NCBI GenBank assembly: GCA_965225945.1
Contig: CBDDBZ010000034.1
Location: 1 to 64,000, forward strand
Source: Alphaproteobacteria bacterium
GTDB taxonomy: Bacteria > Pseudomonadota > Alphaproteobacteria > GCA-2731375
Direction: 5' to 3'
DNA length: 64,000 nucleotides
Part shown: positions 26,289-37,235 of the stretch, in pieces
How the letters are laid out: the number at the start of each line of letters is the position of its first letter
Position numbering within the stretch: position 1 is the first letter of the stretch
Position numbers and translations under genes: made by a program
The notes under the pieces: model-generated
Seen by the model: the letters and a program-made list of their open reading frames with translations, nothing else
What the model was told of the DNA's origin: nothing
Databases searched by the model: none

Positions 26289-26337
26289 AATTGGTGGGCG
26301 CACACGGACTCGAACCGTGGACCCGCTGATTAAGAGT
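26289..26337 (-). repeat. att site (duplicated 3' part of tRNA-Lys)
   Basis: AATTGGTGGGCGCACACGGACTCGAACCGTGGACCCGCTGATTAAGAGT is identical to 37157-37205. Confidence 0.97.
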
Positions 26338-26491
26338 TAGACCACGCCGGGTTTCCGCCCCTTGCGGTGGTATGCGGGATTTGCCCATAAGACACTGAGT
26401 TACAAGGCATTCCTCTCCATCGTCGATTGCGCTTGCTTACGGCATCTTGCGGCCGTATTCTGGCGACACGGCGACAAATTGGAGACATGGA

Positions 26492-27690
26492 ATGCTGACC
26501 GAACGGAAAATTCGGGACGCCAAGGCCGGGCCGAAGACGGTCCTGCTCCGGGATAGCAAGGTGGTCGGCAGTGGAAGTTTTCCAGGCTGGCCGTGCGCGT
26601 CGCCAGCGGCGGCACCAAGAGTTTCGTGCTCGACTACAGGGCCGGCGGCAAGCGCAGGCTCGCGACCCTGGCGCGTTGCTCGGAAATGAGCCTTGAGCAA
26701 GCGCGGGCGATGGCGGGCCGGGAACTGGTGGCGATCCGGGCGGGCGAGGCCGACCCTGTACGCGACCGCCGCGACGCAATGGAGGCGCCGACCGTCGCAG
26801 CGGGGATCGACAAGTTCCTCGGCGAAGAAGCGCCCCGGCGGATCGCGGACGGTCTGATGGCCGAGCGGACCCTGTACACCTATCGGAAGCAATGCGCGTG
26901 GCTCCGGCCGCGCCTCGGCACTCTGAAAATCGCCGCCGTTACGCTCCGCGACATCGACCGCGCGCTGGCGAAGACGGCGCCGGTTGCCCGTAACCGATAC
27001 TTGGCGATCCTGTCGCGGCTGTTCACCTACTGGCAGCGGATCGAGTGGTGCGAGCCCGGGCATAACCCCGCCCGCCTGATCGAGAAGGCGCGCGAGGAAC
27101 CGCGCGACCGCGTGCTGGCGCCGTCCGAATTGGAGGCGCTGGCAACCGCCGCCGGAAGCTCCGATGAAGTGTTCGCCGTCGCGGCAATCCGGTTTCTCAT
27201 GCTCACCGGCTGGCGTTCGGGCGAAGCACTTGCGCTCCGATGGGATCATGTCGATTTCGAGCGCGCGGAAGTGCTGTTGCCGACCACCAAGGCGGGCCGG
27301 CAGACGCGCCCGGTCGGGGCGCCCGTCCTTGCGCTGCTGGCGGACCTGCCCCGCATGAACGGCAACCCGTTCGTCTTCGCCGGCGCCCGGGGCGTCGCGC
27401 TCGGCTATCGGAAGCTCCGCAGCGTGTTCGCCGGGGCGTGCGAGGCGGCGGGGATCGAGGATGTTCGTCTCCACGATTTGAGGCGATCCGTGGCGACGAT
27501 GGCGGCGGCGAACGGTCTACCCGTGCTGCTCTTGCGCGACCTGTTGGGGCACAAGTCGGCGACGATGGCGAACCGCTATGCCCGCCGCGCCGGCTCCGCT
27601 CTACAAGTGGCAGTCGAGGCGAGCACCGAGCGCATGGCCGCGCTGATGAAGGGCGGGACCGCGGACGTGCGGGAATTCCGCCGTGGCTGA
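26492..27690 (+). CDS. int: Tyrosine integrase with arm-binding domain; 17-bp frameshifting insertion near the 5' end (downstream ORF from 26593)
   Basis: MLTERKIRDAK...; GGTKSFVLDYR; TGWRSGE, TKAG, HDLRR, LLGH and RY motifs. Confidence 0.9.
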
Positions 27691-27940
27691 CATCCGAATC
27701 AAGATCGAGCCATACGAGCGGCGGCGGGACCGAAAATTGGAGTGGCATCTTGCCGTCGCGCTGTTGCGGCATTTCTCGCCCGGCATGTCGGAGCGCGCTG
27801 CGTGCAAGATCGTCTTCGACATGGTTGAGGCCGAGCATAGCTTGGAGAGCGACATCGCCGTTCGCCAAGCGGTTCGCCGAATCGGCCCGACCAAGCCGCT
27901 CCGTTTTGTATCCAGACGGGGGCCGCAACCGTCCGTATAG
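27683..27940 (+). CDS. Hypothetical protein
   Basis: Overlaps the int stop codon; 85 aa. Confidence 0.55.
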   Translation: MADIRIKIEPYERRRDRKLEWHLAVALLRHFSPGMSERAACKIVFDMVEAEHSLESDIAVRQAVRRIGPTKPLRFVSRRGPQPSV

Positions 27941-27968
27941 TCTCGCCATCCGACGAAAGGATGGCAAA

Positions 27969-28163
27969 ATGTTCGATCCTGATAAGCTCTATCTCACCAC
28001 CGACCGCGCGCTTCGGGCCATCGCGCCCGCCTCGACGATGGCGCATTGGCGATGCGAGGGACGCGGCCCGGCTTACGTCAAGATCGGCCCGAAAGTGGCC
28101 TACAAGGGCGCAGACGTGCTCGACTGGCTCGAGGCGCAGACCGTCCGCCCCACCGCCGCTTGA
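27969..28163 (+). CDS. AlpA/excisionase-like HTH protein
   Basis: ASTMAHWRCEGRGPAYVKIGPKVAYKGADVLDWL; RBS AAAGGA. Confidence 0.85.
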   Translation: MFDPDKLYLTTDRALRAIAPASTMAHWRCEGRGPAYVKIGPKVAYKGADVLDWLEAQTVRPTAA

Positions 28164-35478: not shown

Positions 35479-35851
35479 TCCGGTTATTTCATATGCCGGC
35501 CCGGAGTCCACCTCATTCGAGGTGCTGGTGATGCTGTACATCGGCGAGGCCGTCAGAGTGCGGGGCGTGCTGAGAAACTTCGACACCTCGGCGGGCGAGG
35601 CCTCCGCACCCTTCGCCGATGCCGGGTCGGTTCTCTGGATCAGCTATAACAACGAACCAGGGCAAATCGAATTCGTGGAATACGTCGAGCCAGCGACCGA
35701 GCGACGCCTGCACCGTCGCGTCACCAAGCGCGAGCGCACCTCGGGCAACTTCAACACGGTCAAGCTCCACCTCTCGGCGGAAGAAGTGGTGATTGCACAG
35801 CGCGGCATGTTCTCCGGGGCGGACTTCAGTAGCGAGGACTTCGCAACGTGA
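35462..35851 (+). CDS. Putative head-closure/adaptor protein
   Basis: ~127-aa beta-rich ORF coupled to portal; assigned by position only. Confidence 0.4.
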   Translation: MAMATDPVISYAGPESTSFEVLVMLYIGEAVRVRGVLRNFDTSAGEASAPFADAGSVLWISYNNEPGQIEFVEYVEPATERRLHRRVTKRERTSGNFNTVKLHLSAEEVVIAQRGMFSGADFSSEDFAT

Positions 35852-36408
35852 CGGGGATAGTCATATCGAGCCGGGATGCCGAGCGGATCGCGCGTGCCTT
35901 CAACGACCTGATCGGGCCGAAAGGGCTTGACCGAATTAGGCGCAAGGCCGTCAACGAGGTCGGCGCCAGGGTGCGGAAGCAAACCCGCATCATCGGGCCG
36001 GAGATTTACAACACCTCACAGGCGTCGCTGAAGGTGCAGGGCAAGGCCGCTTCGCCGGGCTCAGATAACCCGAGCTATCGCCTATCCATGGCGGCGACGA
36101 TCCCCGTGTCGAAGTTGCGGGCGCGGGCTCGCAAGGTCACCCGAAGGCGTGGTCGCGCGTCGCTGTCGATCCTGCTCCCCAACGGTGACAAGATCGCCTT
36201 CCGCAGCGTGCGGCGCGAAGGGTCGATCTTCCACCTGCTCCAGGCCGGGCCGTTGGCGGAAAGATCGCTCGGCGGCGTCTTCACCAACCCCAGGACCGCC
36301 TTCGAGCGTCACCCCGAGCTGGTGACGCTCCGCCGGGATGCCGAACAGGAACTCGCCGAGGCCGTCGCGACGCAAATCACCGCCCACCTGAAGGGACGAA
36401 GACGTTGA
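35848..36408 (+). CDS. Putative tail-completion/neck protein
   Basis: Basic 186-aa protein (RKAVNEVGARVRKQ); located before the terminator-like gene. Confidence 0.45.
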   Translation: MTGIVISSRDAERIARAFNDLIGPKGLDRIRRKAVNEVGARVRKQTRIIGPEIYNTSQASLKVQGKAASPGSDNPSYRLSMAATIPVSKLRARARKVTRRRGRASLSILLPNGDKIAFRSVRREGSIFHLLQAGPLAERSLGGVFTNPRTAFERHPELVTLRRDAEQELAEAVATQITAHLKGRRR

Positions 36409-36980
36409 CACAGATTTCAATGACCGACGACGCAATCATCCGGCTGTTGGATAGTTGCGCCTTTCCTGGCGTCACCATCCTGTCGGCGCCGCACGCATGG
36501 GATGGCGGATTCGTGCAAAGGCTGATCCCGCAAACGCCAGCCATCTTGATCAGCTTCCTCGGCGCCGACGATCCAGACTCGAAGCTCACCGAATTAAACC
36601 TCGATGGCCGATGGGGTTGCTACGTTGTCGTCGGCTGGCATGGCGTGGACCAGAAGGCGCGGCGCCTCGGCGCGGGCGCCGGCTTCGACCTCATGCACCG
36701 CGCGGCGGCGGCGCTTCACAACGAGACTTTGCTGGAGGAAAACGGCGAGAGGCTTCCGCAGGCGCGGGTCGACGGGCTGCAAGTGCTGGCCGATTCGTCG
36801 ACCGACCTCGCAAATCTGTGGATCGGCGAGATTTCCGTCGTGGTCGAACTGCCGTTGCCGCTGCTGGAGGGTGACGCCTGCTTTGGGCCGCTCGACAATT
36901 TCTTGCGCGTGCGCGGCGATCTTGTCGTGAGTGACGAAGCCGACGACATCGAGATCGCCGTGGACCTCCCGCAGACGTAG
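36405..36980 (+). CDS. DUF1834/Mu gp37-like putative tail terminator
   Basis: PAILISFLG...RWGCYVVVG...ARRLG...FDLMHRAAAALHN pattern. Confidence 0.55.
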   Translation: MTQISMTDDAIIRLLDSCAFPGVTILSAPHAWDGGFVQRLIPQTPAILISFLGADDPDSKLTELNLDGRWGCYVVVGWHGVDQKARRLGAGAGFDLMHRAAAALHNETLLEENGERLPQARVDGLQVLADSSTDLANLWIGEISVVVELPLPLLEGDACFGPLDNFLRVRGDLVVSDEADDIEIAVDLPQT

Positions 36981-37159
36981 CGACGATGGCGGGAGCATGG
37001 CCGCGTAAATTCGGCCGCGCCGGACAGACCTCCCCGGCACATATCCCCCACCCCGGAACGCTCTTGCGCATCCTGAGCCTTCCTAGGGGCTTTGGCGACA
37101 TATTGGCGACATGCTTGAAATCCCGTGTCGCTGAATTCTCCCTAAGTCCTTGATTTAAT

Positions 37160-37235
37160 TGGTGGGCGCACACGGACTCGAACCGTGGACCCGCTGATTA
37201 AGAGTCAGCTGCTCTGCCAACTGAGCTATGCGCCC
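37160..37235 (-). tRNA. tRNA-Lys(CTT)
   Basis: GGGCGCATAGCTCAGTTGGCAGAGCAGCTGACTCTTAATCAGCGGGTCCACGGTTCGAGTCCGTGTGCGCCCACCA. Confidence 0.98.

Follow-up and report, generated by a model that had tools for sequence, protein, structure and literature searches.

The window analysed here is a stretch of 64,000 nucleotides (nt) from an alphaproteobacterial genome (positions 1 to 64,000 of contig CBDDBZ010000034.1, assembly GCA_965225945.1), and it carries an integrated element that is probably a phage satellite with capsids of its own, from an alphaproteobacterial lineage distinct from those known. A repeat search of the window located an unstranded direct repeat of 52 nt, 51/52 identical (98%), at 26289-26340 and 37157-37208. 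The two copies are exact over the first 48 nt and the single mismatch is at position 49. The right att repeat overlaps the 3' part of a tRNA-Lys(CTT) gene (37160-37235, minus strand), the one tRNA gene carried by the window, and the left att repeat is a displaced copy of the same 3' part. Because the right copy is the 3' part of a tRNA gene, the interval is read as a tRNA-integrated element. [quoted passage not shown] An earlier note on this DNA, made from the sequence before any database search, had listed an integrase gene between intact att sites; the att sites are intact, but the integrase gene is broken by a 17-nt insertion.

The att interval is filled by 15 open reading frames (ORFs), all on the plus strand and with a high GC content at third codon positions (GC3, 0.73-0.85). 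The 14 ORFs other than the integrase are all open and translationally coupled. Overlaps of 4 nt are found between terL and HNH, 10 nt between the protease and Y257, 1 nt between Y257 and the portal, 17 nt between the portal and n129, and 4 nt each between n129 and n186 and between n186 and n191. The ORFs were scanned against Pfam, PHROGs and NCBIfam, with E <= 0.01 used for statements of absence. The identities of the tyrosine integrase, the large terminase (TerL), the HNH endonuclease and the S78/HK97 protease are secure by these family scans. No match to tail tube, tape measure, baseplate, fibre, holin, endolysin or CI-type families was found among the 15 ORFs. By family scans and fold match, a tail terminator and a possible tail-completion protein are the sole tail-type parts, and the element has no lysis genes and no complete tail module. 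The proposal of a tailless, capsid-encoding, att-bounded element of the cf-PICI type in an alphaproteobacterial host is supported on both counts.

The tyrosine integrase (26492..27690; PF00589 at 2.8e-23, Arm-DNA-bind_3 at 8.9e-9, phrog_1 at 6.7e-52) has a frame interrupted near 26568-26585, which leaves about 28 N-terminal codons (from 26492) out of frame with the body of the gene, a GTG ORF at 26593-27690. In tblastn searches two intact integrase homologues are split into two frames on the window. The 17 extra nt separate the arm-binding N-terminus from the rest of the protein and show no obvious tandem duplication. Contigs from four metagenome runs, belonging to four studies, all lack the 17 nt at 26568, which places both integrase parts in frame, so intact versions of this integrase exist in nature. 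The same contigs have 2-10 further differences over the integrase stretch. They may stem from a related copy, since they are deeper than the contigs with an exact match to the rest of the element. For the insertion in the window there are two readings, a true mutation and an assembly error, which contigs cannot tell apart. Because its integrase is disrupted, the window copy may be unable to excise on its own.

The genes that follow the integrase have been assigned to regulation and replication with varying success. The first, orf85a (27683..27940, 85 aa, GC3 0.75), matches no family at E <= 0.5. A helix-turn-helix (HTH) protein of 64 aa (27969..28163) is a candidate excisionase or activator with weak family matches (HTH_17 at E 0.001, below the cut-off; phrog_2528 at 6.1e-6; the excisionase/regulator family phrog_66 at 0.018), and by sequence it is at best weakly AlpA-like. 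Homologues that are 51-58% identical lie at the same place in two related loci, L001 and L021, and the positional equivalent in a third, L020, matches PF05930 at 1.2e-10. The predicted replication initiator Rep (28187..29335; phrog_8102 at 4.7e-5, phrog_270 at 9.1e-5, O-like phrog_391 at 0.0037, HTH_36 at 0.0012) has a putative origin within its own gene, an unstranded iteron array at 28856..28989 made of five clear 22-bp units at 28878-28988 and one weaker unit (TRF period 22, 5.0 copies, 84% matches). A lower-GC stretch follows the iterons (GC 0.58-0.59 at 28500-29999). The O gene and ori of phage lambda have the same arrangement. A replication module is present, by the Rep-like ORF and the iterons, and it is not of the primase type. 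The iteron Rep had been put forward as a difference between this family and known cf-PICIs. It does differ from a primase-helicase, but it is a swappable module and not a family trait, because a Replicase/PriCT-type protein takes its place in the circular relative L064 and in another element of the window's genome, on contig 20, whereas the iteron/HTH_36 Rep is found in the window, L001 and L020. The next gene encodes zn129 (29328..29717), a basic protein with two CxxC...CxxC zinc ribbons (DZR at 0.0041) and homologues in L022 and L023, the latter of which matches the DksA-like zinc finger family phrog_54 at 9.9e-4. It is a candidate DNA-binding regulator or substitute for the small terminase (TerS).

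The packaging and head genes form the centre of the element. The acidic orf85b (29781..30038, 85 aa) overlaps the start of terL, matches no family and is unlikely to be TerS. No conserved TerS could be proposed from the small ORFs just upstream of terL, as the ORFs of ten elements (the window and nine others) do not align with one another. TerL (30025..31521) is HK97/HK022-like (phrog_9 at 1.6e-60; PF20441 at 29.7 bits, cut-off 24), and its best phage matches are HK022-type large terminases with 27.6-27.8% identity at E of about 1e-19. It is followed by the HNH endonuclease (31518..31808; PF01844 at 1.9e-8, phrog_589 at 3.3e-21), the packaging cofactor of HK97-type cos systems. The major capsid protein of the HK97 type (31872..33164, 430 aa) was assigned by a weak PF05065 match, by its homologues, which reach the PF05065 cut-off at 68-83% identity to it, and by matches to phage capsids. 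Against 50,697 phage records only four weak matches were obtained, all annotated as major capsid proteins, at 27% identity, and a capsid-family profile matched a 'Major capsid protein' in the PDB at E 0.011. Its charged, repetitive N-terminal region could be a scaffold (delta-like) domain. The prohead serine protease of the S78, HK97 family (33168..33644) matches PF04586 at 3.4e-13 and TIGR01543 at 6.6e-12. The portal (34408..35478) is compact, with 356 aa, and matches PF04860 at E 9.9e-4 over profile positions 99-306 of 321. When the capsid, portal and Y257 were searched by sequence against PDB chains, no useful match came up, and profile-based searches gave weak results.

The neck genes lie on both sides of the portal. 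Y257 (33635..34408) was modelled with AlphaFold (AF2) from 40 sequences at a predicted local distance difference test score (pLDDT) of 62.7. The model has two parts. In a wide structure search (VIA), residues 1-120 gave HK97 gp6 as the best match (Z 7.0, which is middling; root mean square deviation 3.3 A over 84 residues), and about ten other neck adaptors of phages and gene transfer agents (GTAs) were among the top 50 matches of the model. Residues 1-120 are predicted to be a gp6-like head-tail adaptor, so that the adaptor expected of a cf-PICI is present. Residues 128-257 form a beta-rich domain in the model. The C-terminal 130 residues are kept in 44 protein clusters, mostly fused and sometimes as a separate protein of about 145 aa. 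No match at E <= 0.001 came from Foldseek when the complete two-domain model was used. Downstream of the portal, n129 (35462..35851) has homologues only in L023, L052 and L002 and matches no family and no PDB profile; its position suggests a head-completion (stopper) role. A relationship of Y257 or n129 to the Phage_HCP-like set was rejected, as hhalign showed none. The next protein, n186 (35848..36408), is a possible lambda gpZ-like tail-completion protein. This lead comes from the ESM Atlas, where 24 of the 30 nearest clusters are from the set that carries PF06763 Minor_tail_Z (score 0.95). It was not confirmed, in that none of 34 family members matches PF06763 and a PDB profile search was without match.

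The last gene of the element, n191 (36405..36980), encodes a protein that, on its modelled fold, is a tail terminator of the Mu gp37/lambda gpU type. The AF2 model has a pLDDT of 77.3 and a predicted template modelling score of 0.70. Foldseek against the PDB gave 59 matches at E <= 1e-3, and the best is the terminator of phage Mu (1.8e-8, template modelling scores 0.60/0.64). T5 p142, lambda gpU, the pyocin collar and T4 gp15 are also in the list. In addition, n191 matches phrog_490 at 6.5e-8, many of its 141 homologue clusters carry PF08873, and the ESM Atlas agrees with a terminator. Neither n186 nor n191 has a match among the phage records. In position only, the order n129-n186-n191 parallels the annotated order of a head-tail joining protein, a 192-aa tail protein and minor tail protein U in one lambdoid prophage. 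The self-encoded tail terminator is the least expected feature of the element. The earlier note had described extra tail-junction genes and three neck-like ORFs without tail parts. The junction genes have stood up, but the last of these ORFs is itself a tail component.

The proteins of the window were compared with those of 27 other modules. These are the contig 20 element, ten modules in a genome of the same genus (G028), loci in three other bacterial families of the same class, two IMG/VR contigs and eight of nine metagenome loci (L070, of 2.9 kb, was left out). Two pairs of loci, L068/L069 and L071/L072, are each probably one element assembled twice. The order terL, HNH, capsid is kept in 25 of the 27 modules and, as far as the contigs reach, is followed by protease, adaptor and portal. 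L051, where only the capsid and protease were matched, and L065, where HNH precedes terL, are the exceptions. Seven loci are bounded by repeats of 16-58 nt with lengths of 10,584, 10,741, 10,682, 10,642, 9,707, 10,970 and 9,877 bp, and a further locus of 10,875 bp has a repeat of only 14 nt. The size is held while protein identities drop to about 25%. The two IMG/VR contigs each have 99-bp terminal repeats and are therefore taken as circular forms, of 10,095 bp (L064) and 9,236 bp; they were found by an alignment-based scan, a single-protein scan having found nothing. The search for syntenic, att-bounded elements of about 11 kb that had been recommended at the outset returned a set of 9.7-11.0 kb, and the closest homologues do not lie in tailed prophages, contrary to what the earlier note had named as its refutation. 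The tRNA genes that adjoin elements of the family are those for Lys, Thr, Met, Pro, Ser, Glu, Arg, Cys and Tyr. When 401 genomes sampled from the phylum were searched with a capsid profile, six had matches, the window's own included, and all six belong to the window's class; capsid matches were found in 4 of 401 genomes at class level and in 3 of 33 at order level.

Variations in the neck are found among these relatives. Most have the adaptor and a Phage_HCP protein before the portal, and the module ends at the portal, without n129, n186 and n191. PF05521 Phage_HCP is above its cut-off in four modules, between protease and portal. In the window, L023, L052 and L002 the adaptor lies before the portal and n129, n186 and the terminator lie after it. 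The extra C-terminal domain of the adaptor is present in the window and not in L023, L052 or L002. A Pfam scan of 72 accessory proteins from 15 related loci gave no tail or TerS family; Phage_HCP was found in four of these proteins and AlpA in one.

Capsid-forming satellites have so far been documented in Gammaproteobacteria, a few other Proteobacteria and Firmicutes, and are thought to have arisen at least three times. The prototype used for comparison, EcCIEDL933, was located in E. coli O157:H7 EDL933 (NZ_CP008957.1, about 1,680,329-1,694,760). Its genes are int, HTH, a DUF927 primase-helicase, a single-stranded DNA-binding protein, capsid, HK97 protease, portal, head closure, head-tail connector, HNH, P27 TerS and TerL. 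Like EcCIEDL933 and the proteobacterial cf-PICIs, the element is an island of 10-18 kb that is bounded by an integrase and has a replication module, and it has a candidate for the alpA-type regulator. As in EcCIEDL933, there are genes for an HK97-type capsid, prohead protease, portal, head-tail adaptor, HNH and TerL, and no tail genes (the window's terminator aside) or lysis genes. However, similarity to EcCIEDL933 is detectable only for TerL (22% identity, E 6.5e-7), the integrase (26%, 3e-6) and HNH (E 0.011). Family profiles of the capsid, portal, adaptor, HCP, n129, n186 and n191 found nothing in EcCIEDL933 (best E 0.3-1), while they recovered their own members down to 1e-222. The packaging genes (terL-HNH) of the window precede the head genes and include no P27-type TerS, the replication protein is an iteron Rep and not a DUF927 primase-helicase, the length is 10.9 kb as against about 15 kb, the adaptor lies before the portal, and a tail terminator is encoded whereas none is among the annotated genes of EcCIEDL933.

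Gene order separates the element from the proteobacterial cf-PICIs only in part. These have capsid-protease-portal-connectors followed by hnh-terS-terL, according to preprint 10.1101/2022.09.08.507074. The order terL-HNH-capsid-protease-connector-portal had been listed as a difference from known cf-PICIs; measured against that description, the head order capsid-protease-portal is the canonical one, but the placement of terL-HNH before the head genes does differ, as does the order within the packaging genes. The same preprint gives 50-90% similarity among packaging-module proteins for the proteobacterial family in the sense of EcCIEDL933, and the packaging and head proteins of the window are outside such relatedness. 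It also describes Firmicutes cf-PICIs of the Lactococcus/Enterococcus group in which packaging genes open the operon and head genes follow, as they do here. However, their order is HNH-TerS-TerL and their host phylum is another one, and the likeness concerns gene order.

Other systems share some of these features. HK97 and HK022 share with the element a TerL assisted by HNH, the S78 type of prohead protease, a capsid of the PF05065 type and an adaptor like gp6, but identities are all below 30%, the order is rearranged, tail, lysis and immunity genes are missing, and the element is a quarter of the size of their genomes. P4 is not known to encode a capsid, portal or terminase and remodels the capsid of its helper. 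As an integrated and presumably helper-dependent satellite of about 11 kb, the element nevertheless resembles P4, for which PMC13669383 gives 11.6 kb and a T=4 capsid. RcGTA-type agents are alphaproteobacterial, have small HK97-fold heads, as the element would, and possess an adaptor and a terminator, and the models of the window's proteins match PDB 6tba chains. GTAs have tails, are not known to carry an integrase, a replication module or att sites, and package host DNA; the gene order of RcGTA also differs.

How far does the element correspond to a cf-PICI? The working criteria include size, integrase, regulation, replication, head and packaging genes, according to preprint 10.1101/2025.02.11.637232, and the cfPICI model of SatelliteFinder has 11 core components, of which at least 9 are required, with forbidden tail and holin profiles, according to PMC10085698. 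The element has the size, an integrase, a replication module, its own capsid and protease, a portal, an adaptor, and HNH with TerL, and it lacks lysis genes and a complete tail; a small terminase was not found. Judged by its gene content it is an element that would work like a cf-PICI and has most of the features in the working criteria, TerS being the failure, and it is no sequence relative of the proteobacterial cf-PICI family. The family appears not to have been described before, as the earlier note had suspected. Its head genes have no close relative among the 50,697 phage records and their profiles have no match in EcCIEDL933. The word 'Alphaproteobacteria' does not occur in the main text of PMC10085698, the supplementary tables of which may list such cfPICI hosts. 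No description of a satellite-encoded tail terminator was found in the literature searched, most subscription journals being outside its scope.

The reading of the element as an integrated capsid-forming satellite is considered probable, and its transfer most likely makes use of tails borrowed from another phage. What the analyses show are the gene identities, the att sites, the iterons, the conservation of order and size among relatives and the circular forms of relatives, and a mechanism can be proposed on this basis. After induction the AlpA-like protein and the integrase would excise the element from the tRNA-Lys gene, although the integrase is disrupted in the window copy. Rep would fire the iteron origin within its own gene. 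With the S78 protease trimming it, the capsid protein would form a small head of HK97 fold around the portal, with room for about 10-11 kb. TerL and HNH may then cut and package unit-length satellite DNA, as in the HK97-type cos phages. The gp6-like adaptor, n129, n186 and the element's own terminator would complete the neck, to which a helper would contribute tail tubes, tape measure, baseplate and fibres; the helper would have to supply lysis too. For induction, capsid size, cos packaging, tail theft and helper dependence, the proposal is deduced from which genes are present.

Several observations weigh against this reading. A TerS family was recognised neither in the 15 ORFs of the window, as had been noted from the start, nor in the 72 accessory proteins of the relatives, although a TerS could have escaped recognition in either set. 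The capsid of the window scores 17.1 bits with PF05065, below the Pfam cut-off, and the portal scores 18.8 bits with PF04860, below the cut-off of 39.1 bits; the contig 20 copy of the portal (69% identical; 35.3 bits, E 9.3e-9) is likewise below it. Searches gave no assignment for n129 or for the C-terminal domain of Y257. The integrase of the window copy is frame-broken, and contigs of four metagenome runs showed no joint that would convincingly represent attP or an empty site; the joints reported in them have sides of only 21 nt, lie off the att sites and are hence uninformative on excision. Finally, no helper was found. At 96.55% completeness and in 39 contigs, the window's genome has no match to PF10145, PF04984, PF06791, PF04865, PF13550 or PF06199, and none to PF05065. 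The four other genomes that bear elements have no PF10145, PF04984 or PF06791, and the RcGTA-type tail tube PF06199 is absent from four of the five element-bearing genomes (the window's, G037, G186 and G221). These searches covered only 3 to 6 families while tail families are diverse, and absence from a genome says nothing on virulent phages.

The fifth genome, G028, has an RcGTA-like head and tail cluster on contig 2 at about 927,000-949,000 (L062, L063), which is interrupted by an insertion sequence (IS). The cluster includes the tube (PF06199 at 8.4e-32), DUF2460, a baseplate hub (Gp84_N), BR0599 and a Phage-tail_3 gene split by an IS, and a PF05065 capsid at 8e-80 lies about 12 kb from the tail genes. 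The cluster is about 10 kb from one satellite module and is a conceivable tail donor in that genome.

A more specific version of the satellite reading is possible but tentative, and we hold it to be doubtful as it stands. It says that these elements are a further independent origin of capsid-forming satellites, so far restricted to Alphaproteobacteria. In the sub-lineage of the window, L023, L052 and L002, the terminator, perhaps together with the gpZ-like protein, would cap helper tail tubes with a satellite-specific ring, and tails would be re-addressed to satellite heads during assembly instead of finished tails being captured. The helper would be virulent, because the window's genome has no tail genes and only one of the four other carriers has any, in the IS-interrupted RcGTA-like cluster.

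Three other explanations have been weighed. On the first, the element is what remains of a defective prophage: a once complete temperate phage would have lost the tail and lysis genes by deletion, leaving an inert head half. The broken integrase, the IS-type transposases immediately to the left and the existence of decayed copies in the family (the portal of L022 is truncated, and the capsid matches in G037 and G221 are fragmentary) are all consistent with decay. However, a tailless, att-bounded set of 9.7-11.0 kb recurs in many loci and several bacterial families, and independent deletions would not end at the same borders. There are circular forms of 9.2 and 10.1 kb, each of the 14 remaining ORFs is open and translationally coupled, and no full-length phage with a related capsid is present among the 50,697 records, which makes a remnant improbable. 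Equally improbable is a helper-independent element, a minimal tailless virus or capsid-based transfer agent that delivers its DNA through a stub of neck proteins. Up to about ten copies are found in one genome, the window's adaptor has an extra domain of 130 aa while that of L064 heads a 787-aa ORF, and the families for tape measure and sheath are missing from the window's genome and the four other carriers, as is PF06199 from four of the five, all of which would suit such an element. Against it, receptor-binding, cell-wall-degrading and lysis genes were not recognised in family scans of the window ORFs and the 72 accessory proteins, most relatives end at the portal without n129, n186 and n191, tail terminators cap a tube in solved structures, and the 787-aa ORF has no PDB sequence match; the tail searches covered only 3 to 6 of the diverse families, and virulent helpers leave no trace in a genome. 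That the element borrows tails from a chromosomal RcGTA-like cluster and not from a phage is very unlikely: G028, which is of the same genus and has about ten elements, does carry such a cluster, and the adaptor and terminator models also match RcGTA virion chains, but that cluster is IS-interrupted, the window's genome lacks PF05065, PF13550 and PF06199, G037, G186 and G221 lack PF06199, and for the terminator model the match to RcGTA (5.1e-4) is far poorer than that to Mu (1.8e-8).

If the element is a capsid-forming satellite, a separate alphaproteobacterial lineage would widen the known range of these satellites. Bearing on this are head proteins without detectable relation to the prototype, a tightly kept size of about 10-11 kb, up to about ten copies in a single genome and circular forms in metagenomes. 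The element may be a compact natural system in which to study how small HK97-fold heads are sized. Should a satellite terminator act on the tails of the helper, satellite and helper would be in conflict at a new point. How is DNA recognised by HNH-type packaging when TerS is missing? Since the carrier genomes are without recognisable tailed prophages, the elements may also point to virulent phages, so far unseen, that infect uncultured and possibly sponge-associated bacteria.

Some further observations concern the genomes that carry the family. The second element in the window's genome (G000) lies on contig 20 at about 82,800-93,000 (L005, 8832-18966). It has a Replicase/PriCT rep, terL, HNH, a capsid that is 69% identical, a 349-aa protease, two small ORFs and the portal, with int at the far end. 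It has no n129, n186 or n191, and IS transposases adjoin it. The sole other phage-like locus in this genome is at the start of contig 4 (1-9,100; L041), a terS-terL-portal remnant with two TerS-like ORFs, TerL and a canonical portal broken by a TAG stop, and no head or tail genes after it. In the circular relative L064 the 787-aa frame is at 3415-5775, with the adaptor-like domain first and about 650 residues after it; its lack of a PDB match has been mentioned, and a search of this circle with six integrase queries turned up no integrase. The 8-Mb genome G028 (L020-L028) has about ten capsid-bearing modules, most of them beside different tRNA genes (Ser, Met, Pro, Ser, Glu, Lys and Arg). One of them, L022, is truncated, and two are in tandem within 13 kb (L025).

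The borders of the window element show two more features. Short repeats of the GGCGACA type lie just inside both att ends (26462-26476 and 37092-37112) and may be integrase arm sites. The motif GGCGACAY, at 26462, 37094 and 37105, is suggestive of such sites, but with 16 occurrences found in the whole window against 8.5 expected it is not enriched. Directly to the left of the element, at 21260-26194, are three transposase genes (one DDE_3 and two IS1595-type) with a PilZ-domain gene among them, and ordinary chromosomal genes lie to the right. In L021, on contig 4 of G028, the same 35-nt att-like repeat is present three times, at 1070, 6490 and 17231, which suggests that a 5.4-kb second element or remnant is in tandem with a 10.7-kb satellite.

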